Source: Bacteroidetes bacterium CG12_big_fil_rev_8_21_14_0_65_60_17
GTDB lineage: Bacteria; Bacteroidota; Rhodothermia; Rhodothermales; UBA10348
Assembly (NCBI GenBank): GCA_002787815.1
Contig: PCUY01000072.1
Location: forward strand, 30,973 to 94,972
DNA length: 64,000 nt
Direction: 5' to 3'
Part shown: piece after piece, positions 4,612 to 61,944 of the stretch
Layout of the letters: the number at the start of each line of letters is the position of its first letter
Numbering within the stretch: position 1 is the first letter of the stretch
Notes under the pieces: generated by a model
Told to the model about the DNA's origin: nothing
The model's input: the letters and a program-made list of their open reading frames with translations, nothing else
The model's database searches: none
Program-made: the position numbers and the translations under genes

Positions 4612-4649
4612 GGGCTCAGCGGTGGTTCATGGGCTCAGCGGTGGTTCAT
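4612..4649. repeat. perfect 19-bp tandem duplication (gggctcagcggtggttcat x2) at the lptF-like/rsmI junction
   Basis: Read directly: 4612-4630 equals 4631-4649. On the minus strand each unit reads ATGAACCACCGCTGAGCCC (M-N-H-R-stop + GCCC), which is the last codons and stop of the upstream permease gene. Confidence 0.95.
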
Positions 4650-6107
4650 CGGCGTGAAAAGGGAGAGCGTGTGCCGAGCCCAGTGGCCCAGGCGGGCCCA
4701 GGGTGAAACAGCAGCCCGCAGGTCCAGCCATACGAACAGCGTCATGGCAAGTCCAAGGATGGCTGTCACGATATTGGCCAGCCACATTCCCAGCCAGGGA
4801 TCCATCAGACCGCGATCGGCAAATTTCTCACCGTTTGCGAGCGAGACCCAGTGGAACATGAAAATAGCCAGCGCTACCACGGCCGACGTGCCCAGTCCCC
4901 CACGTCGGATGGACAGCCCAAGCGGAGCACCGAGAATCATGAACAGAAAACAGGACAGAGCCATGGAGTACTTCTTGTGTATCTCGACCGTGTAGCGGTC
5001 CGCCCGTTCCGATGTGAACCGGACGGTACGGTGTCCCGAATCTATGCTGGTACGGAGCGCACGGGCGGTTTCACGGGCCGTTTCCAGCAGCAGGGCGCGG
5101 CCCGTGGAATCGGCCTCGGAAGGCTCAATCGGCGCCGGGAAAGCATTTCCGACATCCCGGCCACGCAGCAGAAGCCTACCCTGTGATGATCGCTGCCAGG
5201 CCTGGTCACTGAGTGTTCCATCTCCAAGCCTCAGGACCTGTTCAGCCAGTTCGTTCTTCTTGGCGCGTGCGGTCTGGTGGAGACTGTCGACCAGGGCAAT
5301 CATGGCCGATGACGGCATGGTCCTGTCATTCCGGTTTACCTGGTTTGGATCGGTTCGGCGAAAATCCAGATCGTCGAGCGAAATACGAAGCAGTTGTCGG
5401 TCGAACGACATACGCTCGTAGCGGTCGGGAACGGTTCCGGAACCCGGTCGCGGCCTGTGTACTTCCCCGTCGAAGAGCGTCAGCAGCAGCATGCGCCCGT
5501 TGTTCCGGGTTTGCAGTAACCCCCGCTCCGCCGTGATGTCTGTACGGAAGCGGACGCCGGAAGAGTAATCGTAGAGCGTCACGCCATACAATTCATTTGG
5601 ATTCTCTTCCGGAATATGCCGGACGAGCATGCGGTAGTTGTCAATTCCGTCGTACACGACGCCTGCCCGCAGGTCGAAGCCGGGTTTTGCTTCCCGGATG
5701 TTTTTCCAGAGCGTGAACGCCCGGAAATTGGCCTCCGGATGAATCTGCGTATTGAAAACCCACATACCACCCGAGAGCAGCATTCCCACGATCCACACCG
5801 GCCAGACGAGTTGTACGAAGCTGACGCCGGATCCCCGTATCACGGTCCAGGCCTGGGTCTCGGCAAGACGGCCAAATGCCATGAGCGTGGAAATGAGGGC
5901 AGCCATGGGTACAGCCAGTACCAGCATGTATGCCAGGTTGTACGAGATGAGTTCAAAAATCACGCGGACGGGGAGGCCCTTCCCAACGAGCTGCGGTAGG
6001 TACTTGATCAGGAACTGCATGACAAGCAGGAACAGCAGCACGAGAAGCCACGCCACGAACGGGCCCGGCAGCATGCGGAGCATCATCTTGTGAAACTGTT
6101 TCGTCAT
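4635..6107 (-). CDS. LptF/LptG-family (YjgP/YjgQ) LPS export permease
   Basis: N-terminus MTKQFHKMMLRMLPGPFVAWLLVLLFLLVMQFL, six predicted TM helices and a large periplasmic insert. Start set at the ATG at 6107 rather than the ORF-track 6140. Confidence 0.8.
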   Translation of the reverse strand: MTKQFHKMMLRMLPGPFVAWLLVLLFLLVMQFLIKYLPQLVGKGLPVRVIFELISYNLAYMLVLAVPMAALISTLMAFGRLAETQAWTVIRGSGVSFVQLVWPVWIVGMLLSGGMWVFNTQIHPEANFRAFTLWKNIREAKPGFDLRAGVVYDGIDNYRMLVRHIPEENPNELYGVTLYDYSSGVRFRTDITAERGLLQTRNNGRMLLLTLFDGEVHRPRPGSGTVPDRYERMSFDRQLLRISLDDLDFRRTDPNQVNRNDRTMPSSAMIALVDSLHQTARAKKNELAEQVLRLGDGTLSDQAWQRSSQGRLLLRGRDVGNAFPAPIEPSEADSTGRALLLETARETARALRTSIDSGHRTVRFTSERADRYTVEIHKKYSMALSCFLFMILGAPLGLSIRRGGLGTSAVVALAIFMFHWVSLANGEKFADRGLMDPWLGMWLANIVTAILGLAMTLFVWLDLRAAVSPWARLGHWARHTLSLFTPMNHR

Positions 6108-6145
6108 GTTCGCGTGGCAGCACCCGGAAACAACACCCAAGATAG

Positions 6146-10684: not shown

Positions 10685-11824
10685 ATGAACATCCTGGTAG
10701 ATGACGCCATCCCTGCTGCCGCTCGCTGTTTCAGTCCATTCGGGCACGTGCGAAGCGTGCCGGGGCACCTGATTGGCCGTACTGAGGCAGCGTGGGCCGA
10801 TGCCCTTGTTGTACGCTCGGTGACACGCATTGACCGTCACCTGCTCGAGGATACCGACGTAATGTTCGTGGGGAGTGCGACGGCAGGCGTGGACCATGTG
10901 GATCAGGACTGGCTTCGCCAAGCCGGTATCTCGTTTGCGGCAGCCTCCGGTGCGAATGCGGCGGCCGTGTGCGACTACGTCCTCGCAGCCCTCGGTGTCG
11001 CCGTGGAACGGGGTGTTACCGGGAACTGGCCGGACACAGCGGTGGGAATTATCGGATACGGGAACGTGGGCTCAAAGCTCGCGCGGCGTCTGGAACAACT
11101 GGGTTGTCACGTACTGGTGAACGACCCGCCAAGAGCAGCGCGCGGTACGATGGACAGGGCATCTACGCCACTTTCCGATCTGCTCGGCCGGGCACAGGTA
11201 CTCTCGTTGCACACACCCTTGGTGGGCAGGGGCACGTGGTCCACGACAGGTCTCATTGATGCAAGACGACTGGCTGACCTCCCGGCACGAGCCGTGCTCA
11301 TCCAGACTTCACGGGGCGGGATACTTGACGACCAGGCGGCGGCACGTCTAAGAAGGCAGGGTGACCTGTCCTTCATGGCCATGGATGTCTGGGAGCACGA
11401 ACCCGTTCCCGACGTGGTCGTGATGGATAGCGCGGACCTGGTGACACCGCATATTGCCGGATACACGGCCAGTGCGAAGCGGCAGAGTGTGACAGCGATA
11501 GTAAAGGCGCTCGAAGTGTTTCTGGGACGTTCGCCGGGAGAATGGGACTCGCCACCTGAAAAGGTAAGCGTACTGCCCTCGCCACCACCCTGGCCGGGAC
11601 CGGGCCCGGCCTTTTCCTGGCTGACGCAACAGCTCTATGATATCCGGGAAGATGACAGATGGATGCGTCGTGCGATGACCGCCACGGATTCTGCTGCCGG
11701 GAAAGGGGACGTTTTCCATGGGCTGCGCAAGCGCTATGGCACGCGTCCGGGCTTTGACGCATACCGCCTGGAGACAAGCGATGCCCGTTGGAGGGCCCTC
11801 TTTGATGCGATTACACGCCCGTAA
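10685..11824 (+). CDS. pdxB: 4-phosphoerythronate dehydrogenase
   Basis: MNILVDDAIP... N-terminus, a D-2-hydroxyacid dehydrogenase NAD fold (GIIGYGNVGSKLARRL), and the PdxB-specific C-terminal extension. Confidence 0.8.
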   Translation: MNILVDDAIPAAARCFSPFGHVRSVPGHLIGRTEAAWADALVVRSVTRIDRHLLEDTDVMFVGSATAGVDHVDQDWLRQAGISFAAASGANAAAVCDYVLAALGVAVERGVTGNWPDTAVGIIGYGNVGSKLARRLEQLGCHVLVNDPPRAARGTMDRASTPLSDLLGRAQVLSLHTPLVGRGTWSTTGLIDARRLADLPARAVLIQTSRGGILDDQAAARLRRQGDLSFMAMDVWEHEPVPDVVVMDSADLVTPHIAGYTASAKRQSVTAIVKALEVFLGRSPGEWDSPPEKVSVLPSPPPWPGPGPAFSWLTQQLYDIREDDRWMRRAMTATDSAAGKGDVFHGLRKRYGTRPGFDAYRLETSDARWRALFDAITRP

Positions 11825-12725
11825 AGCCGAATGATCGCAGATGTCCCTCGTTGTTGCGCCAGTCACTGCGTACTTTCACGAAGAGGCGCAGGAACACGCC
11901 TCGTCCGAGGAACGCCTCGATATCCGTTCGGGCCTGCATCCCTATTTTTTTCAGGGCTTCCCCTTTTTTGCCGATCAGGATGCCTTTCTGTGAGTCACGC
12001 TCCACAATGATTTCCGCATCGATCAGATCCTTCTCGTCTTCGCGCTCTTCCCAAGCCACGATATCGACCTGGGTGGAGTAGGGTACCTCCTTGCGGTAGT
12101 TCATGAAAATCTTTTCCCGGATGATTTCCGATATGAAAAACCGCTCCGGTTGTTCGCTGATCTGATCCTTGGGATAGAACGGCGGACCCTGTGGCAGCAA
12201 CGTCTGTATTTCCTTCAGAACGCGATCCACGTTGAATCCTTTCAGGGCCGAAACAGGAATCACCGCATGGAAGGGATGTGCTTCGCTGTAGGCCGCCGCA
12301 AGTGGAAGTACTTCCTCCTGACTCATCTTGTCTATTTTGTTGAGGATCAGGATGGAGGGTGTCTCACCGGCGTATTTGAGCGTAACGTCATCGACGTCAC
12401 TGTACGTCGCATCTACCATGAAGACCATGATATCCGCGTCGGAGACGGACACCTTGACATCCGCCATCATGGCCTCCTGCATGCGGTATGCCGGCTTGAT
12501 GATTCCGGGCGTGTCGAGCAGGATGATCTGGTAATCGTCGCCCGAGAGAATACCGAGCACGCGCTGGCGTGTGGTCTGCGGTTTGCGCGTCACAATGGAG
12601 AGTTTCTGCTCCATGAGGGTATTGAGAAGGGTGCTCTTGCCCACGTTCGGGCGGCCAATGATGGCAACATATCCCGATCGGTGGGCGACGCTGGGTTCGA
12701 TACCGGTGTCTGGGGTGGTTTTCAT
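11811..12725 (-). CDS. era: GTPase Era
   Basis: GRPNVGKSTLLN, DTPG and NKID G-motifs plus a C-terminal KH domain. Confidence 0.95.
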   Translation of the reverse strand: MKTTPDTGIEPSVAHRSGYVAIIGRPNVGKSTLLNTLMEQKLSIVTRKPQTTRQRVLGILSGDDYQIILLDTPGIIKPAYRMQEAMMADVKVSVSDADIMVFMVDATYSDVDDVTLKYAGETPSILILNKIDKMSQEEVLPLAAAYSEAHPFHAVIPVSALKGFNVDRVLKEIQTLLPQGPPFYPKDQISEQPERFFISEIIREKIFMNYRKEVPYSTQVDIVAWEEREDEKDLIDAEIIVERDSQKGILIGKKGEALKKIGMQARTDIEAFLGRGVFLRLFVKVRSDWRNNEGHLRSFGFTGV

Positions 12726-48963: not shown

Positions 48964-49092
48964 GGAATAGAACGGCTGCTGTCGAATTGGAAATAGGCGG
49001 CCGCGCACGGGAGTGCGCTGACCGGTGCGAAGCTGACTAATATACAGCCTTTTTCCGTGAATGTTCAGTACATCCGTACTGAAAAAAAGGTG

Positions 49093-49854
49093 TCAAGCGG
49101 CTCGGTTCGACATGACCGACAACTGGTAGCGGAGCGTTTTGAGAACCTTTGCGAGAATCTGGCTGATTCTGGCCTCTGTCCGGTCCATGAGTTCGGCTAT
49201 TTCCCGAAGAGTCAGATTTTCGAAGTAGTAGAGAGCGAGTATGGTTTGCTCGCGGTCCGGGAGTTCGTTGATCAGCGTTTGGATGTATGCTTTCAGGCTC
49301 TCCCGGTCAATGGCCTCGAAGGCAAGCAGCGTGTCATTGTTCGGTATCGACTCGATCATGGTGTGATCGTCTTCCCCGTTCACCGGAGAATGCAGTGACA
49401 GGGAAAAGCGGCACTGTGCATCTTTGAGCAGTGTGTGGTAGTCGTAGAGTGACATGTCCAGGTACTCGGCCACGGCCTGGTCAGTGGGCTCTTCCCCAAG
49501 TTCCTGACGCAGCGTGTCCATGGCCTGGTGCGCCTCGGCAAGCAGGCGGCGGCGCTCCCGGGGGAGGGCATCGATGGAACGCAGGTAGTCCACCAGGGCA
49601 CCACGGATCCGGCCGTAGGCATAGGATACGAAGGGCGTACCCCGATCAGGATCGAATCCTTCAAGCGCCTGCAGCAGGCCAAGCTGACCCACGCTTTCCA
49701 GATCTTCACGCGATGCCAACGGGTGATCCGGAATGTTCAGTCGCCCAACAATGGAGCGGATGAGGGGGACAGCGGCCGTGACAACGGCTGTACGGTTCAC
49801 ATCGGAAGGGTTCGCTGCGAACGCGACGGCTACGGTTTGAAGATCCTGCGACAT
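49093..49854 (-). CDS. fliA: FliA/WhiG (sigma-28)-family RNA polymerase sigma factor
   Basis: Region 2 (REDLESVGQLGLLQALEGFDPDRGTPFVSYAYGRIRGALVDYLRSIDALPRERRR), region 3, and the region 4 HTH (LTLREIAELMDRTEARISQILAKVL); 253 aa. Confidence 0.78.
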   Translation of the reverse strand: MSQDLQTVAVAFAANPSDVNRTAVVTAAVPLIRSIVGRLNIPDHPLASREDLESVGQLGLLQALEGFDPDRGTPFVSYAYGRIRGALVDYLRSIDALPRERRRLLAEAHQAMDTLRQELGEEPTDQAVAEYLDMSLYDYHTLLKDAQCRFSLSLHSPVNGEDDHTMIESIPNNDTLLAFEAIDRESLKAYIQTLINELPDREQTILALYYFENLTLREIAELMDRTEARISQILAKVLKTLRYQLSVMSNRAA

Positions 49855-49880
49855 GGCGAAAAGGGGTTGAGGGGTTGGTG

Positions 49881-50165
49881 TCAGGCCGCTTTCTGGGCAT
49901 CCGGAATCCGGACGTCCCCACGCGAGTCAGCTTCCACATACGGGGCATCCTCGGTCATGCGGGCAGATGGTTCCATGTCATCCATGAGGCGATGAACGGC
50001 AAAATCACCGAGTAACAGCATGGCCCAGGTGGTACATCCGGCAGAACCGGCCCACAGGAGGGAGGGTGCCAGTCCGGAACCAGCCTGCAACAGGTTGGTG
50101 GCGGTCAGTGCGGCGACCAGCAAGCTGAACTGTATGATGAGGCTTCGCATGGGATATGGAATCAT
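49881..50165 (-). CDS. small two-TM membrane protein with acidic tail (function unknown)
   Basis: I shortened the ORF-track ORF (to 50237) because a sigma-54 promoter lies inside its 5' end. In-frame ATGs lie at 50165 and 50150. The gene ends 26 bp upstream of the sigma factor gene. Confidence 0.5.
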   Translation of the reverse strand: MIPYPMRSLIIQFSLLVAALTATNLLQAGSGLAPSLLWAGSAGCTTWAMLLLGDFAVHRLMDDMEPSARMTEDAPYVEADSRGDVRIPDAQKAA

Positions 50166-50182
50166 GGTTCGACTCCATGTCA

Positions 50183-50198
50183 TGCAAAGCGTGTGCCA
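50183..50198 (-). promoter_or_regulatory. sigma-54 (-24/-12) promoter
   Basis: The minus strand reads TGGCAC-ACGCT-TTGCA, matching every specified base of the TGGCAC-N5-TTGCW consensus with exact spacing. It points at the small membrane protein and fliA-type genes. Confidence 0.7.
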
Positions 50199-50309
50199 GC
50201 GGTCAACACCCGTGCGCCCTGCAACGCTGAAAACCACCTCTTAGAGGCCTTAAGGGCATAAAAGACCCCTGTATTCCTGTAGTGAGTGGCAGGTCAGTCC
50301 ACGCGGGAA

Positions 50310-50360
50310 CGGAAAAATATTCCGTGATCCGGGCTTGTGTCGAGCGGAAGATATTTCCGC
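50310..50360. promoter_or_regulatory. two dyad-symmetric candidate enhancer (UAS) sites for the sigma-54 activator
   Basis: cGGAAaaataTTCCg (50310-50324) and gCGGAAgatatTTCCGc (50344-50360). Both are 5-N5-5 dyads with centres 35 bp apart, about 120 and 155 bp upstream of the -24 element. Confidence 0.5.
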
Positions 50361-50370
50361 AGGCCACCGG

Positions 50371-51771
50371 TCACGTCAGATACCCTTCCTCGCGATATTT
50401 CTTCAGTTTGTTGCGAATGGTACGGGCACTGATACCCAGTTTGTCGGCTGCCTTCTGCTGATTGTTTCCACTTTCCTCGAGTGCCTCGAGAATCATGTGT
50501 CGCTCCATGTCCTCGATGGTATCATGATGGGAGGCGCCGTCCGACTGGCCAGACCGGGACGACCCGGCGTCGGAGAAGAAACTGTCGTACACGTCCGGGA
50601 CGTCGACGAGGGGACGGTCGGCCGAGAGGAGCACACCCCGCTGGATCATGTTTTCCAGTTCCCGCACATTCCCGGGCCAATCCTGCTCCAGCAGACGCTG
50701 CATCAGGGCATCTGAAATGTCTTTTGACGGCAGTCCGTAGAGACGGCAGTATTTCTGTGCGAAATGCCGTGTCAGAAGCGGCACGTCATCCATCCGCTCT
50801 GAAAGTGGGGGAACGGTAAGTGGAAAAACAGCCAAGCGGTGATACAGGTCTTCGCGGAACAACCCCTCAGCAATGGTCTGCGAGAGGTTGCGGTTGCTCG
50901 TTGCAACCACGCGGACATCCACCTTTTTTACTTCCGCTGAACCGATTTTCTGGACCTCCTGCTCCTGGAGCACCCGCAGCAACTTTGCCTGGATGGGAAG
51001 ATCGATCTCGGTGATTTCGTCGAGCAGCAGCGTCCCTCCGTCGGCGCGTTCAAATGCACCCGTCATGTCTTCCACGGCGCCGGTGAAGGCACCCTTGCGG
51101 TGGCCGAACAAGTGGCTTTCCACCAGATCGCGGGGGAGGTTCGCACAGTTCAGCGCCAGATATGGCCCGCTCGCACGATCACTCTCATTGTGTATCAGCC
51201 GGGCGAGAATCTCTTTACCGGTTCCGCTTGCCCCCTGGATGAACACGGGAGCGCGGTTTCTGGCTACACGCGGCAGCATGTCTTTCAACCTGCGAATGGG
51301 CCCGGACTGGCCCACGTACATGTCATCCACCGAACCCTGTGCCGCACTGCCCGGGCCGCGTTGTGTGCGGCTCTTTCCTGCAGCAGCGGTTTCTTCCGGA
51401 AGTGGCGTGTCGAGGGATTTCTGGACGCGCTCCACCAGTTCGGCGGCGGTAAATGGTTTCGGGATATAGTCAATGGCGCCATGCTGCATCATCCGTACGG
51501 CGTGCTGTACGTTGGCGTGTGCCGTGACCATGATCACGCGTGTCGTCGGGTAATGCTCACGGATGTGACTGAGCAATGAAAACCCGTCCATGTCGGGCAT
51601 CATGAAGTCGGTGACGACAATGTCAAACGACTCTCCAGCCAGGATATCGATGGCCTGGACAGCGCTGGAAGAGCATGTCACGTCAAAGCCGTGACGGGAG
51701 AACAGGCGCTCGAACAGGTTGTGGAGTAGATGTTCGTCATCGACGAACAGGAGCCGGGGGGTGTGTGACAT
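50371..51771 (-). CDS. sigma-54-dependent response regulator (NtrC/FleR-type enhancer-binding protein)
   Basis: REC domain (LLFVDDE...VVTDFMMPDMDG), an AAA+ domain with Walker A GASGTGKE and the GAFTGA loop, and a C-terminal Fis-type HTH (QQKAADKLGISARTIRNKLKK). Confidence 0.92.
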   Translation of the reverse strand: MSHTPRLLFVDDEHLLHNLFERLFSRHGFDVTCSSSAVQAIDILAGESFDIVVTDFMMPDMDGFSLLSHIREHYPTTRVIMVTAHANVQHAVRMMQHGAIDYIPKPFTAAELVERVQKSLDTPLPEETAAAGKSRTQRGPGSAAQGSVDDMYVGQSGPIRRLKDMLPRVARNRAPVFIQGASGTGKEILARLIHNESDRASGPYLALNCANLPRDLVESHLFGHRKGAFTGAVEDMTGAFERADGGTLLLDEITEIDLPIQAKLLRVLQEQEVQKIGSAEVKKVDVRVVATSNRNLSQTIAEGLFREDLYHRLAVFPLTVPPLSERMDDVPLLTRHFAQKYCRLYGLPSKDISDALMQRLLEQDWPGNVRELENMIQRGVLLSADRPLVDVPDVYDSFFSDAGSSRSGQSDGASHHDTIEDMERHMILEALEESGNNQQKAADKLGISARTIRNKLKKYREEGYLT

Positions 51772-51851
51772 GGAGGGAATATTGCGTCATCGATACGCAA
51801 ATATACCTCAAATTCCCAGCAAGTTTCAGATTCTCCCGCGTTGGGAAGTTG

Positions 51852-52592
51852 TCAGTCTGTCGGCGGCAGGGTAAGCACGAAGACCGTTCCGTTTTCGGGA
51901 GAACTCCCCTCAAGGACGAGCGTGCCTTTGTGCAAACGGGCAATCTGCTCGGCAAGTGGCAAACCCACACCCAGATTCCAGGCCTTCGTCGTGTGGAATG
52001 GCTGAAAGATGAGGTCCGGTGAGGTTTTGTGGCTGAGCGTACCCTCGTTGTGCACCTGTATGTGAATGGGGGGATTCGCGCCTGGTGCCGGGTTTCCCCG
52101 CGACAGGGTTATGGTTACGGGTGTTTTCTCGTGGTGTGTGGCCTCCAACGCATTCGTCACAAGGGCCATGACCGCCTGGCGCAGGGCTTTCGGGTCCGCC
52201 ATGACCCGCTGTCCCACGGGCAGGTTCATGTCAAAGCGTACGCGACGGGCATCCGTATCCGGAAGAATGCGTTCCAGGTGACGAACAACGTCGGTCAGCA
52301 CGACCGATCGCAGAACGACGTTGGGGTTCGCATGGTACAGGTCCAGGTCCTCCAACACGGATTCAATACGCCGGACACTCTCCAGGATCCTGATGCCGGA
52401 CTCCCTGTCCTCGGTTTTCGAAAGCGACGTCATGAGAAGCTCCGTATAGCCTTCTATACCACTCACAAGACTGCCTATCCGGTGGCGGAGTACCTGGGCA
52501 AACTCCCTGAATGGGGCCTCCTGTGCGGGTTGTTCGGCACCGCGCCTGACGGCCGGCCTGTTCCGGGCTATATTTCTGGATGTTTTTGACAT
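51852..52592 (-). CDS. soluble histidine kinase lacking any sensor or TM domain
   Basis: H-box FAQVLRHRIGSLVSGIEGYTELL, N-box LVTNALEA, and G/F boxes (HNEG, FQPFHTTK, GVGLPLA). Only 246 aa, so HisKA + HATPase alone. Confidence 0.8.
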   Translation of the reverse strand: MSKTSRNIARNRPAVRRGAEQPAQEAPFREFAQVLRHRIGSLVSGIEGYTELLMTSLSKTEDRESGIRILESVRRIESVLEDLDLYHANPNVVLRSVVLTDVVRHLERILPDTDARRVRFDMNLPVGQRVMADPKALRQAVMALVTNALEATHHEKTPVTITLSRGNPAPGANPPIHIQVHNEGTLSHKTSPDLIFQPFHTTKAWNLGVGLPLAEQIARLHKGTLVLEGSSPENGTVFVLTLPPTD

Positions 52593-52618
52593 GGAGGCTG
52601 TTGGCAGTGTTGTTGGTC

Positions 52619-53491
52619 TTACGACACCCGCTGTGTTGTAATGGAATCAAAGGAAGGAAGTGGGGCATGCAGCAGTTCGGCAGCAACGGTATCGACCGTC
52701 CGCATGAGTTCATCGCCGAGCAGAGGTCGCGCCGCTTCTGCAGACTCCATGTCCCTGGACCCGGAAGTTGTCGCCGCATAACCTGCTTCGATTACCAGAT
52801 TGGATGCGACGCTCACGAGCAGCTGCAGGAAAGGGGTAATGGTTGACGGATGGGCGACAGGATGCCCGCCAAGCGACATCACGTCGACGACGTAAGAAGG
52901 AAGGGCGAAGCGCAATCCTGCAAATGCACCGGTTTCGGAAGCATCGAACCCGAACAGAAGTTGTTGCGGGGTTCTCCAGTCGTGCGAATCGAAGAGAATG
53001 GTCTGAGGGGAAGAATCGGCCATAGCCGCGAACTGCGATGGGAAGGACTGGGCCAGCACAAGTGTTCCATAGTGGAAGAGCAGCCCTGCACTGAACGCTG
53101 TACCGGGCGGCGAGTCGGCTGCGTCCGGCCAGGTGCCTTTCGCCAATCGATGCGCAACGCGGGCGGTAGCATAGGCTTCGTTCCTGATGGCGTGAACCAC
53201 CTCCGCCTCTCTGACATGTGTCCGCGTGGACACGATCATGCGTGCCACACTCGCGGGCTCAAGGACTTCGATGGCCTGCGTAAGGCTGCCCACTGTGTTT
53301 CGTAGTCCGTAGTAGGAATTGTTGGCCCGCTTGAGCAGACCTGCCGCCGTAAAAAGATCGCGGGAAACAACCCCTGCCAGGGCACCGGCCCGGAGGGGAA
53401 GCCCGGTCTCGATCATATTCCTTACGCGCTCGGCAACAGACTCGACAGGTGGTCGCAGCAGGGTGAGGCCGGTAAAAAGTGTAGGTTCCAT
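52619..53491 (-). CDS. HDOD-domain protein
   Basis: AAGLLKRANNSYYGLRNTVGSLTQAIEVLEPASVARMIV and downstream HD-related helices resemble HDOD signalling modules. Confidence 0.7.
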   Translation of the reverse strand: MEPTLFTGLTLLRPPVESVAERVRNMIETGLPLRAGALAGVVSRDLFTAAGLLKRANNSYYGLRNTVGSLTQAIEVLEPASVARMIVSTRTHVREAEVVHAIRNEAYATARVAHRLAKGTWPDAADSPPGTAFSAGLLFHYGTLVLAQSFPSQFAAMADSSPQTILFDSHDWRTPQQLLFGFDASETGAFAGLRFALPSYVVDVMSLGGHPVAHPSTITPFLQLLVSVASNLVIEAGYAATTSGSRDMESAEAARPLLGDELMRTVDTVAAELLHAPLPSFDSITTQRVS

Positions 53492-53502
53492 GGTAGCGGA
53501 CC

Positions 53503-54345
53503 TCAGGCAGCAAGTCTGAGGGCGCCACTGCCTGACAGTCGGCGGGCCTCATCAATGCGTCCCTGTTTGATGTTCAGTGCCACAAGACGTCGACGCAGAA
53601 GCTGGCTCTCGGATCGAGTTTCGTAGAATGCCGTGTAGAGCGTGAGTGCTTCTTCCTGCCACCCCTGTTGGGCAATGGCCTGAATGACCTTGTCGGCCTC
53701 GGTCTCTTCAAGGTTCCGGATCATGATAGATGCGACGGCCGTGGCATCGCCCGGGTTATTGCGGTACAGGGCAAGCCTGAAACAATCCTCGCGCAGGGGA
53801 GCAGGCATGGTCTCAATCCCCTCCGGGTATGCACTTTCAAGGTGATCAGCTACATCATCCCATTTTCCGAGTTGCCAGGACCAGGCGGCCAGAAGCGTGT
53901 GCGTCTCGGTCGTTGAGAGCACGGTATCCCAGGTTGTCTTCGTGTCGCCGACGGCCAGGTTGGACATGTGCAGATAGGCCGCCAGATAGTCTTTGCGACC
54001 GGCAAGCACATTGACCTGGATCATGTGCGATGCCAACTGGTTCGGGAACAGGTCCAATGAACGGCCTGCCATGCGACGGGCAGGTTCCGTAGCGCCCAGT
54101 CGTCTCTGGGCTTCGGCCAGTGCCATTTCCATGGCGGCCCGTTCCTCCGGGTGGAATATCCGGGGCTGATCCATGGCTTGGCGCGCCTCGGCCGAGGCGG
54201 CCTCCCAGTTGCCATTTCGCATATGGTTCCAGATGGGAACGAGCGACGAGTAGGGGAGGTCGTCGCAGTCGAACGAGAGTTCGGGTACGCGGTAGCCGCT
54301 CAGAAAAGATTCTTCGCGGGGCTGGAGTGTGAGTTTGCGCATCAT
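53503..54345 (-). CDS. helical-repeat (TPR-like) hypothetical protein, first gene of the regulatory operon
   Basis: Repeated helical hairpins (GNWEAASAEARQAM, GKWDDVADHLESAY, GWQEEALTLYTAFYE, QGRIDEARRL). I trimmed the start to the ATG at 54345 because a terminator and a sigma-54 promoter occupy the ORF-track 5' extension. Confidence 0.5.
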   Translation of the reverse strand: MMRKLTLQPREESFLSGYRVPELSFDCDDLPYSSLVPIWNHMRNGNWEAASAEARQAMDQPRIFHPEERAAMEMALAEAQRRLGATEPARRMAGRSLDLFPNQLASHMIQVNVLAGRKDYLAAYLHMSNLAVGDTKTTWDTVLSTTETHTLLAAWSWQLGKWDDVADHLESAYPEGIETMPAPLREDCFRLALYRNNPGDATAVASIMIRNLEETEADKVIQAIAQQGWQEEALTLYTAFYETRSESQLLRRRLVALNIKQGRIDEARRLSGSGALRLAA

Positions 54346-54403
54346 GACGGTTCGGAATTTTGTGCTGTCCGGGTGTCCCGGTGTTCTTGTCTTCCCGTCG
54401 ATA

Positions 54404-54419
54404 TGCAAAGGGCCTGCCA
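54404..54419 (-). promoter_or_regulatory. sigma-54 (-24/-12) promoter upstream of the regulatory operon
   Basis: The minus strand reads TGGCAG-GCCCT-TTGCA (one mismatch to TGGCAC-N5-TTGCA, exact spacing), 59 bp upstream of the proposed ATG at 54345. Confidence 0.6.
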
Positions 54420-54539
54420 ACGATGAAATACGCTCTGGCGTCCCGAAAACCGTATGACGAATCGTGAACAGGCGGTAATCCTTTCCTGAAGGAGCGCAAA
54501 TATTTCCCATGTCGCGTTGCGAACAGCCCTGTTACAGAG

Positions 54540-54570
54540 AAGGCCCGGAGCGCATTGCGCTCCGGGCCTT
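54540..54570 (-). terminator. GC-rich stem-loop terminator downstream of rplU-rpmA
   Basis: AAGGCCCGGAGCGC-att-GCGCTCCGGGCCTT forms a perfect 14-bp stem with a 3-nt loop, about 80 nt after the rpmA stop. The minus-strand trailer is UCUCUGU, which is only weakly U-rich. Confidence 0.6.
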
Positions 54571-54648
54571 CCAAGATGCTGTCCACACAGGTGGTATGGT
54601 GCGTCCCGTTACGTGCTCGTTATATGTAACAGCTCATTGCCGCTCGGG

Positions 54649-54903
54649 CTACTCGCTGTCCACGTGGACGAATTTCCGGTTGCCCTGTCCACGGGAGAAT
54701 CGAACTTTGCCGGTTTGCGTCGCGAAGAGCGTGTCATCACCGCCACGACCGACATTGCTGCCCGGATGAAATTTCGTGCCGCGTTGACGTACAATGATGG
54801 CGCCTGCCTGTACGAACTCGCCTCCGTAGGCCTTGATACCAAGCATCTGGGGGTTCGAATCCCGACCGTTCTTGGTCGACCCCATTCCTTTCTTATGTGC
54901 CAT
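54649..54903 (-). CDS. rpmA: 50S ribosomal protein L27
   Basis: [31 protein letters not shown]...[13 protein letters not shown]. Confidence 0.97.
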
Positions 54904-54932
54904 TGCTGAGCTCCTCTGGGATTAGGTTCGGA

Positions 54933-55247
54933 TCAACCGGCGTTGAGCGCGGTCACCTTGATCTGTGTGTACGGCTGCCGGTGGCCCCGTTTGACCTTGT
55001 ACCGCTTACGGCGCTTCTTCTTGAACACAAGCACCTTGTCCGCCTTTACGTGGTCAAGCACCGTGGCATTGACCGAGGCTCCTTCGACCGTCGGTGTACC
55101 CACCGATACGTTCTCACCATCGGCGACCAGCAACACCTTGTCAAACGACAATGTGGACGAGGTTTCGGCCGACTGGCGGGGAATGTACAGTGTGTCATCC
55201 TGGGACACTTTGTACTGCTTACCGGCGATTTCTACGATCGCGTACAT
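54933..55247 (-). CDS. rplU: 50S ribosomal protein L21
   Basis: MYAIVEIAGKQYKV...KKRRKRYKVKRGHRQPYT. Confidence 0.97.
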   Translation of the reverse strand: MYAIVEIAGKQYKVSQDDTLYIPRQSAETSSTLSFDKVLLVADGENVSVGTPTVEGASVNATVLDHVKADKVLVFKKKRRKRYKVKRGHRQPYTQIKVTALNAG

Positions 55248-55345
55248 ATCTTGCCTCTGCTTTGGGCGGCGGGTTGGTTACCGTCGCGAGAGTGTATACG
55301 AAAACATTCAGTCAATCAATATACGGCGCACGCACGAGCCGTTCA

Positions 55346-56014
55346 ATGCGTATGGATATGGAAGAATTGAGAATTCAGGGGACAGATCACGTGCTGCGCC
55401 CCGGAAAACTCGTGTGCGTGGGGCGCAATTACCTGGCCCATGCGCGTGAAATGAAGAGCGATGCCCCGACCGAACCCATGCTCTTCCTGAAACCGGCGAG
55501 CAGTCTGACGGGTTTCGGCGGTCAGATTCTGCTGCCGCCGCAATCGGATGACGTGCATCATGAAGTTGAACTGGTTGTCGTCGTTGGACGCCGGTTGTGC
55601 CGGGCAACACCGGACGAAGCGATCGATGCGGTTGCGGGGCTTGCTGTGGGACTCGACCTTACGGCACGTGATATTCAACAGAGGGCCAAGGAGCGGGGGC
55701 ATCCATGGAGTGTATCGAAAGGCTTCGACACGTTTGCTCCCCTGGGGACCGTTGTGGAAGCCGATCCGGAGCAGCCCCGTCGCATCTCCCTGAAAGTCAA
55801 TGGTACCATAAGACAGAAGGCTTCCACAGCAGACATGCTTTTCCCGGTTGCTGACCTCCTGGTGTATGCGTCCGGCATTTTTACGCTCCATCCCGGGGAT
55901 CTGCTTTTCACGGGGACACCCGAGGGGGTGGGACCGGTGCGCGAAGGCGATCTGCTCGAGGCGGAGATCGAGGGACTTCCGATTCTTGAGATCAGTGCCG
56001 ACCGTAGGCGCTGA
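55346..56014 (+). CDS. fumarylacetoacetate hydrolase (FAH)-family protein
   Basis: GKLVCVGRNYLAHAREM, HHEVELVVVVG, and the C-terminal GDLLFTGTPEGVGPV. I trimmed the 306-aa ORF to the ATG at 55346, because its 5' part runs antisense through rplU. Confidence 0.85.
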   Translation: MRMDMEELRIQGTDHVLRPGKLVCVGRNYLAHAREMKSDAPTEPMLFLKPASSLTGFGGQILLPPQSDDVHHEVELVVVVGRRLCRATPDEAIDAVAGLAVGLDLTARDIQQRAKERGHPWSVSKGFDTFAPLGTVVEADPEQPRRISLKVNGTIRQKASTADMLFPVADLLVYASGIFTLHPGDLLFTGTPEGVGPVREGDLLEAEIEGLPILEISADRRR

Positions 56015-61177: not shown

Positions 61178-61944
61178 CTGGCTGTCGTTGTGGGTGACTG
61201 CAAATATAGGTTTTCTACGGAATGGAAAGCGGCCTTGGACAATGTCTTACGGTCCGCGGGCTCAATGGGTGCGTGTCCGTACTGGATACGTGCATTGAAT
61301 CGCGGAAACGTTAGCAGGCGCCACAAATGGTCTGCAAACGTCATGTCTCCCCACCAGCACAGATCCGTCCTGGCATCGCCGCCTGGCAGATCATAGGATA
61401 TGGCTGCCGTGTGGACAGGCAGTCCGACTTCGGCAGGAACGGACATGAGCGATGCCTTGAAGGGGAGTATACCGGCCCCGGAAGATGACGTGCCCTCAGG
61501 AAAAAAAACGATACCGTCGCCTTCTGCAAGCACGTCGCGCATGTCGGCCGCTACCCGAGGTATGTCGCGGCTGCGTGATCGGTCAATGAAAATGGTGCCA
61601 AACGTTCTTGCCAGCCATCCGATGCCTGGCCACGCGGCCAGGTCGGCACGCGAGACGAGCCGCGCTTTTGTGGTGGCGATGACCACGAGGATATCAAGGT
61701 AGCCTTGGTGGTTGGCCACAAGACAGAAAGGCGGCTCGGGCGGGACACCCCTCACGTCCAGACGGCACCCCATGATACGGAGAAGGCCATCGGCCCACCG
61801 TGTTGTGATGGCATGCCGCCATGAGACACGGCCATGAACGCTTCTGTTCCGATACAGGCCGACAGCCCACCAGGTGAACGTCAGGAGGAGGGTATGAAGG
61901 ACGATGGCCACGAGCCGTCCGCCGGCTCGCACACGCTTGATCAT
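61174..61944 (-). CDS. PlsC/OlsA-type lysophospholipid (O-)acyltransferase
   Basis: HX4D motif NHQGYLD, FFPEGTSS, and an N-terminal membrane anchor. 4-bp overlaps with both neighbours. Confidence 0.8.
   Translation of the reverse strand: MIKRVRAGGRLVAIVLHTLLLTFTWWAVGLYRNRSVHGRVSWRHAITTRWADGLLRIMGCRLDVRGVPPEPPFCLVANHQGYLDILVVIATTKARLVSRADLAAWPGIGWLARTFGTIFIDRSRSRDIPRVAADMRDVLAEGDGIVFFPEGTSSSGAGILPFKASLMSVPAEVGLPVHTAAISYDLPGGDARTDLCWWGDMTFADHLWRLLTFPRFNARIQYGHAPIEPADRKTLSKAAFHSVENLYLQSPTTTAR

Follow-up and report, generated by a model that had tools for sequence, protein, structure and literature searches.

The Locus and the Promoter before the TPR Gene

We examined a 64,000-nucleotide stretch (hereafter the window) of contig PCUY01000072.1 from Bacteroidetes bacterium CG12_big_fil_rev_8_21_14_0_65_60_17, a member of the Rhodothermales, in which the minus strand carries, in order, a lysA-like gene, rplU, rpmA, genes for a TPR-repeat protein, an HDOD-domain protein, a histidine kinase, and an NtrC-type activator, then a sigma-54 promoter, a small open reading frame (ORF), fliA, and a SurA-like gene. 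The TPR gene (53503-54345) encodes 280 amino acids (aa) and is followed after 11 nucleotides (nt) by the HDOD gene (52619-53491), after a further 26 nt by the kinase gene (51852-52592), and after another 80 nt by the activator gene (50371-51771), all four being co-directional. Directly before the TPR gene is a second sigma-54-type (-24/-12) promoter motif (54420-54404, minus strand; TTGGCAGGCCCTTTGCA), recognized from its sequence and from its conservation in all 26 loci compared below. We consider it probable, with moderate confidence, that this motif is a working sigma-54 promoter and that the TPR gene, here together with the HDOD and kinase genes, thereby belongs to the regulon of an NtrC-type activator recognizing GGAA-N5-TTCC. 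In all likelihood this is the activator whose own gene lies four genes downstream.

The minus-strand letters 54419-54404 are TGGCAGGCCCTTTGCA, with a T preceding them at 54420. Read as TGGCAG-GCCCT-TTGCA, they depart from TGGCAC-N5-TTGCW at a single position that is outside both the GG (54418-54417) and the GC (54406-54405), and these two dinucleotides are 12 nt apart, the canonical -24/-12 spacing. The motif is intergenic and on the sense strand, with 59 nt between 54404 and the ATG at 54345, and it lies 3′ of the rpmA terminator. An earlier sequence-only reading of this DNA had described the motif, its one mismatch and correct spacing, its distance to the ATG, and its position just beyond the rplU-rpmA terminator, and the letters, the coordinates, and a hairpin found at 54572-54538 bear out each of these points. 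Beside the motif we found neither a TATATT-type -10 box nor a sigma-28-type motif, and no sigma-28-type promoter was found at the site or elsewhere in the window. An Rfam scan of 49800-55500, with E up to 1, matched no family, so that no known RNA element accounts for the conserved intergenic islands described below.

The distance from promoter to gene depends on the start codon, and here the ATG at 54345 is in frame with an ATG at 54510 that opens a 335-aa ORF. Most of 48 homologs were 279-280 aa long, with a first residue aligned to M56 (that is, to ATG 54345), and the N-terminal extensions beyond this position were unconserved among homologs. In addition, L001-L005, five of the related loci, had in-frame stops 5′ of the conserved ATG. 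The suspicion in the sequence-only reading that the 54510 start was wrong is thus well founded, given the homolog lengths and the upstream stops. By these comparisons, the identical NCBI protein P0001 (335 aa) is annotated about 55 residues too long and its true start is 54345. Structure prediction for the TPR protein gave a confident model (pLDDT 88.8) and a fold search returned generic TPR superhelices only, consistent with a generic protein-binding scaffold whose fold gives no functional clue.

Upstream of the promoter, the rplU-rpmA terminator (54538-54572, minus strand) was identified by folding as a hairpin with a 16-base-pair (bp) G+C-rich stem, a 3-nt loop, and a weak U tail; the 76-nt stretch containing it had a free energy of -43.1 kcal/mol (z = -6.05), and the orthologous loci likewise had a hairpin and then a T run at the same place after rpmA. 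Downstream, transcription is predicted to start near 54393, which would give a 5′ untranslated region (UTR) of about 48 nt. This leader contains a small hairpin (54369-54381, minus strand; CCGGGACACCCGG) that is kept in L001 as CCGGGATGCCCGG and in L002 as CCGGAATATCCGG, both sides of one pair being changed in the latter, and it is possibly a post-transcriptional control site. GGA is found in or beside its loop. The leaders of many related loci have an ACAAAC motif in common, and the hairpins seen in the leaders of other clades are unrelated.

Conservation among Rhodothermales

We retrieved 40 loci with genes for relatives of the TPR protein, 25 of which share the rplU-rpmA ... TPR ... fliA neighborhood where their flanks were fetched and, together with the window, make up a syntenic set of 26. 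In all 26, the sense strand carries a GGC-N7-TTG element, usually TTGGC-N7-TTG, at 33-101 nt 5′ of the orthologous ATG, a count in which GGC and TTG were required by the search pattern itself. Alignment of this intergenic region across related genomes, named in the sequence-only reading as a check, therefore places the motif at the equivalent position in 26/26 loci. Its surroundings are poorly conserved, the anchored intergenic sequence of 20 non-redundant loci having a mean of 0.19 bits per column outside the motif, and in the alignment of the window with L001 and L002 (the three closest genomes) the promoter forms an island of conservation. In these three genomes only, a short conserved element, CGTATTyC, is also seen about 6-13 nt 5′ of TTGGC (about 54433-54426, minus strand).

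The statistics of the window contribute little to this picture. Allowing one mismatch or fewer, five matches to the sigma-54 consensus occur across the window where 2.39 are expected, and 9 of 100 shuffled sequences reach five; the count in the window alone is within the random range and cannot decide function. This is the one observation that would suit a chance match without function. However, the background chance per locus in a 70-nt stretch is 0.029 for GGC-N7-TTG and 0.009 for TGGC-N7-TTG, and with chances of 0.01-0.03 per locus set against an element found at the corresponding position in each of the 26 syntenic loci, conservation effectively refutes a chance origin, which we regard as exceedingly improbable. 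The promoter is taken as real because it is conserved in syntenic loci, not from the statistics of the window.

Two observations weigh against assigning this element to sigma-54. The first is the -12 C, normally near-invariant in sigma-54 promoters, which on the TPR side is kept in 16 of the 26 loci and replaced by T in six and by A in four, while at the second promoter, before fliA, it is T, A, or G in 12 of 25 loci. The second is that we found no RpoN-box peptide encoded anywhere in the 64 kb of the window, so that rpoN lies outside what was seen and the presence of sigma-54 in the organism is deduced only from the GAFTGA activator. Both would be accommodated if TTGGC-N7-TTG were recognized by some other sigma factor or DNA-binding protein, the -12 C being T or A in 10 of the 26 loci and the view of the genome being limited to the window. 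That explanation seems to us very unlikely: the spacing from GG to TTG is exactly -24/-12 in all loci, the same variable -12 position recurs at the fliA-side promoter, which in the window is a perfect consensus, a GAFTGA activator is encoded alongside with dyads at enhancer-like distances, and the element is accompanied by no TATATT-type -10 box or sigma-28-type motif. GG and TTG are retained at both promoters despite the variable -12 position. Replacement of the -12 C in this lineage is a departure from the textbook sigma-54 consensus, and its frequent loss at both promoters might mean that sigma-54 here recognizes the -12 position in a relaxed or shifted way. We infer that the TPR-side promoter depends on sigma-54.

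Activator-Type Dyads on the TPR and fliA Sides

The dyad considered to be the activator site is clearest at the second sigma-54 promoter (50183-50198, minus strand; TGGCACACGCTTTGCA), which lies before a small membrane-protein ORF and fliA (49093-49854). In the window this promoter is a perfect consensus, and TGGCAY-N5-TTG was present on the fliA side in 24 of the 25 loci covering the region, the remaining locus (L033) having CGGCAC. Two exact dyads on the minus strand, GCGGAA-ATATC-TTCCGC (core 50358-50346) and ACGGAA-TATTT-TTCCGT (core 50323-50311), are located 35 bp apart and 124-159 nt 5′ of the promoter, and paired exact GGAA-N5-TTCC dyads precede the fliA-side promoter in most loci. Elsewhere in the window, GGAA-N5-TTCC is matched exactly just once (5138-5150), at a position covered by a long minus-strand ORF (4635-6140). 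Between the fliA-side promoter and fliA is an 89-aa ORF (49881-50150, minus strand) with a hydrophobic N-terminus and no Pfam match. Its N-terminal sequence, MR.L..QFS..., is similar in related loci, so that fliA is probably the second gene of that unit. By eye, sigma-28-like -10 boxes (GCCGATA/GTCGATA, with TTAAG-like -35 elements) were seen in the activator-fliA intergenic region of L003, L004, L026, L033, and others; they lie on the fliA strand in L010, L012, L013, and L021 and, in some loci, on the strand opposite to it. None were seen in the window.

On the TPR side, the sites are of the same family. The proximal dyad, site B (54474-54486, minus strand; CAGGAAAGGATTACCGC, core 54486-54474), reads GGAA-AGGAT-TACC, has one mismatch to GGAA-N5-TTCC, and is centered near -87. 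The distal site A (54495-54507, minus strand) is the degenerate GGAA-ATATT-TGCG, centered near -108, 21 bp (two helical turns) 5′ of site B. Both centers fall at the distance from the promoter typical of enhancers (about 80-150 bp upstream), and both sites are conserved in the alignment of the window with L001 and L002. Site A contains the half-site already singled out in the sequence-only reading at 54495-54508, where the plus strand reads CGCAAATATTTCCC and shares ATATTTCC with the dyad at 50344-50360. This half-site proved to be real, conserved, and of the same family as the fliA-side dyads, although it is secondary, since the best-conserved site is the dyad at 54486-54474.

Comparison among the loci extended these observations. 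A dyad with one mismatch or fewer begins 64-67 nt 5′ of TTGGC in 13 of the 26 loci, the window included, and in a clade with an inverted activator gene (see below) an exact or near-exact dyad is present 158-182 nt upstream on the TPR side. GGAA-N5-T[TG]CC occurs within the 190 nt upstream in 21 of the 26 loci, where 1.1 are expected (Poisson P about 5e-20); of the five loci missing this pattern, three are the window, L001, and L002, which do so because the right half of their dyad is TACC. Over 18 loci, the element 20-22 bp 5′ of the proximal dyad had a mean of 3.2 mismatches in 8 positions against a background of 5.1, with the left half kept and the right half degenerate across loci.

Two other identities for these sites were considered and rejected. 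Reading the dyads as RNA hairpins does not suit their conservation: the halves are invariant in sequence, compensating changes are absent, and pairing is lost in the TGCC and TACC variants, a pattern that points to a protein-binding DNA site. Nor, by eye, does the half-site suit a housekeeping -10 box (AATATT), there being no -35-like hexamer 17-18 nt away and no TATATT at that place in the orthologs.

We infer that the adjacent activator is the protein binding the TPR-side dyads, on the basis of the dyad shared with the adjacent fliA promoter and the proximity of gene and sites. Across loci, the TPR-side sites are consistently weaker than those on the fliA side, a gap in site quality that could correspond to different activation thresholds at the two promoters. 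The TPR-side sites in the window are imperfect, with one and two mismatches, which weighs against our reading. Furthermore, in five to six genomes with another arrangement, the dyad is also found about 45-75 nt 3′ of sigma-28-like promoters (TTAAG-N15-GyCGATA) before a gene whose N-terminus is FliS-like by eye, with exact dyads in L025 (7737-7822), L031 (10825-10922), L032 (11621-11720), and L022 and L024 (about 11640-11860). The dyad is thus not exclusive to sigma-54 promoters, and its binder could be a different or broader flagellar regulator. If the activator does bind at these sites, it may also repress.

Such a regulator, encoded elsewhere, is the basis of the main rival to a self-contained loop, namely a hierarchy in which a different dyad-binding protein activates both the TPR-side and fliA-side sigma-54 promoters, much as FlrA and FleQ act on flrBC and fleSR. 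In Vibrio and Pseudomonas, specifically V. cholerae and P. aeruginosa, the flagellar two-component genes indeed depend on a separate master activator (PMC7064773). The dyads beside sigma-28-like promoters before fliS-like genes would fit a wider flagellar role of the binder, and our view of the genome is 64 kb. Against a hierarchy, the activator gene always adjoins the fliA-side dyads, in both orientations, which is the usual signature of a regulator next to its own site, and no second NtrC-type activator gene was found in the 64-kb window. We judge the hierarchy unlikely.

The Activator Gene, Its Own Housekeeping-Type Promoter, and Proposed Flagellar Wiring

The activator encoded in the window has a receiver domain, an AAA+ domain (Sigma54_activat) with GAFTGA at residue 227, and a Fis-type helix-turn-helix (HTH_8). 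The kinase is a protein of 246 aa with HisKA and HATPase_c as its only matched domains, about 28 residues before the first of these, and no hydrophobic segment by eye, and partner proteins are its likely input.

Placement of the activator gene varied among relatives. In the window and 13 other loci the genes are co-directional (four genes, or three in L026, where no HDOD gene was detected), while nine loci have the activator gene in the orientation opposite to that of the TPR gene, seven with this gene inverted alone and two with the kinase gene inverted as well. In all nine, the TPR gene retains its sigma-54 motif and dyad. In the clade with an inverted activator gene, rpmA and the TPR gene are separated by a gene for a type II/IV secretion ATPase with an MshEN domain (L010, 3571-5487, minus strand). 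Before the two inverted kinase-activator pairs (L028 and L033), GGCAC-N5-TTTG is present on that strand 5′ of the kinase gene. Before the seven singly inverted activator genes we found no convincing sigma-54 motif; these genes carry a TATATT-type box instead, with only a variant or none in L010 and L012.

The same kind of box precedes the activator gene in the window, where a housekeeping-type promoter, CTGAAA-N18-TATATT (51800-51829, minus strand), occupies the 80-nt gap between the kinase and activator genes. Its TATATT (51805-51800) has a counterpart no more than 130 nt from the activator start codon in 23 of the 26 loci, in either gene orientation, against a background chance of 0.012 per 110 nt. 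The minus strand of the window has just four copies of TATATT (61203-61208, 55318-55323, 51800-51805, and 49039-49044), each of them just 5′ of a gene, with that of rplU paired with TTGAAC and, in three of the four cases, a TTGAAC- or CTGAA-like hexamer 17-18 nt upstream, which suggests YTGAAM-N17-18-TATATT as the form of the organism's housekeeping promoter. Directly after the TATATT of the activator promoter is an inverted repeat, TTGCGT-N7-ACGCAA (51782-51800, minus strand), with arms identical in L001 and L002 and a spacer that varies; it may serve as an operator or form a hairpin in the 5′ UTR.

These results bear on the autoregulation proposed in the sequence-only reading, which had placed a sigma-54 promoter before a four-gene kinase-activator operon and suggested, if the activator binds there, a bistable or commitment-type circuit. 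The proposal is supported in part: the promoter itself stood, being conserved before the TPR gene, but the activator has its own promoter and is inverted in nine loci, and a simple single-promoter four-gene operon is contradicted by the internal TATATT promoter conserved in 23 of the 26 loci. Because the seven singly inverted activator genes lack the sigma-54 motif, self-activation is not a conserved feature, a point that counts against a loop closing on the activator. Together, the separate promoter and the inversions indicate that the TPR gene, joined by the HDOD and kinase genes where these follow it, is the conserved cargo of the sigma-54 promoter, and that the activator is not.

Strong positive autoregulation from a single four-gene transcript that includes the activator, forming a bistable commitment-type switch, would be in keeping with the co-directional genes of the window and 13 loci, the gaps of 11, 26, and 80 nt, and the conserved promoter and dyads, and nothing resembling a terminator was seen in the 80 nt that precede the activator gene. 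It is difficult to reconcile with a conserved housekeeping-type promoter directly before the activator gene, with the activator lying inverted and outside the sigma-54 unit in nine loci that keep the TPR promoter, and with TPR-side sites that are consistently weaker than those on the fliA side; we regard it as improbable. Feedback on the activator itself is possible only by read-through across the 80-nt gap. In this genome such read-through into the activator gene may occur, adding some positive self-activation, while the sign of the feedback and any bistability are conjectural.

The feedback might also be negative, the TPR protein, the HDOD protein, or both restraining the kinase or activator so that activation of the promoter limits signaling, as FleQ-induced FleN limits FleQ in Pseudomonas. 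A conserved cargo consisting of the TPR gene and not the activator, a TPR protein that resembles a generic protein-binding scaffold, and a kinase that has no matched sensor domain and probably takes its input from partner proteins would all agree with this scheme. The kinase gene is, however, co-directional with the TPR and HDOD genes in the window, and more kinase could equally amplify signaling, and we therefore hold negative feedback to be a tentative possibility, on the doubtful side.

We favor, then, a sigma-54 promoter through which the activator feeds back on its own signaling partners, and its proposed operation is as follows. The activator would first be made at a basal level from the housekeeping-type promoter in the kinase-activator gap. 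The soluble, sensor-less kinase would then phosphorylate it, enabling it to bind the imperfect dyad at about -87, with the weaker site at about -108 probably helping, and the bound activator would open the sigma-54 closed complex at the TPR-side promoter. The same activator, acting on the two perfect dyads at the second sigma-54 promoter, would switch on fliA. As a result, the activator would feed back onto its signaling partners, and extra activator would be made only if there is read-through.

A flagellar role for this circuit is suggested by the sigma-54 promoter with dyads directly before fliA and by the location of TPR-HDOD orthologs between flgL and flagellin genes in other genomes. Specifically, in 12 non-syntenic loci (L017, L020, L022, L024, L025, L029-L032, and L034-L036), among which is the complete genome of Roseithermus sacchariphilus, the TPR gene follows flgK-flgL immediately; flagellin genes lie beyond it in the loci whose downstream flank was fetched, and the HDOD gene is often its next neighbor. 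In these 12 loci, which are arranged differently, the TPR gene has no sigma-54 motif of its own. The presence of TPR-HDOD among late flagellar genes in 12 genomes indicates that the pair is flagellum-associated and makes a flagellar regulon plausible.

The circuit has parallels in several characterized systems. Caulobacter crescentus FlbD is a sigma-54 activator that acts on dyad enhancers near flagellar promoters, activating some and repressing the promoter of another class. Here, similarly, the dyad is found both 5′ of sigma-54 promoters and 3′ of sigma-28-like promoters, but the activator scores below the FlbD family cut-off (354.7 vs 750 bits). Its score to the FlgR model was 295.6 bits, again against a cut-off of 750 bits, and its best NCBIfam matches were the generic AtoC and NtrC models, also below their cut-offs; by score it falls outside these curated families, and no ortholog relationship to the flagellar systems named below emerged. 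In the enteric glnAp2-glnALG (NtrBC) system, a sigma-54 promoter with upstream NtrC dyads (TGCACC-N5-GGTGCA) is combined with a weak sigma-70-type promoter for basal activator, giving positive autoregulation. The two-promoter logic proposed here is alike, as is the 6-N5-6 geometry of the dyad when the flanking CG is counted. Unlike in glnALG, the site sequence is different, the regulon is flagellar and not nitrogen-related, the first genes encode TPR and HDOD proteins and not an enzyme, and the activator lies outside the sigma-54 unit in a third of the related genomes.

The closest functional counterparts are FlgSR of Campylobacter jejuni, FlrBC of Vibrio cholerae, and FleSR of Pseudomonas aeruginosa, in which a cytoplasmic kinase and an NtrC-type activator switch on flagellar genes via sigma-54, although fliA of P. 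aeruginosa is independent of sigma-54 and FleSR (PMC7064773). The locus in the window shares with them a soluble kinase, a GAFTGA activator, and flagellar-regulator neighbors. FlrBC and FleSR are under a separate master activator; here the activator gene has a housekeeping-type promoter of its own, the same dyad stands before its partner genes and before fliA, and the kinase gene is preceded by a TPR-HDOD pair. We found no literature on flagellar or sigma-54 regulation in the Rhodothermales, which are flagellated relatives of Bacteroidota, and nothing relevant linking HDOD with sigma-54 and fliA.

Feedback of an NtrC-type activator on its own signaling genes is already well known, and the understanding of sigma-54 circuits is unchanged by these results. 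The comparison supplies a binding motif (GGAA-N5-TTCC), a correction to a protein start, and the form of the housekeeping promoter, as well as a testable wiring in which a housekeeping promoter drives the activator, the activator with sigma-54 drives TPR-HDOD-kinase and fliA, and sigma-28 drives the late genes. More speculatively, and in our judgment improbably, TPR-HDOD could be a previously unrecognized input module in the Rhodothermales that couples flagellar assembly to a sensor-less kinase, in place of the direct MS-ring/export-apparatus sensing by FlgS, FlrB, and FleS. Were this true, placing the module under its own sigma-54-dependent promoter with weak sites would make it a self-adjusting checkpoint.

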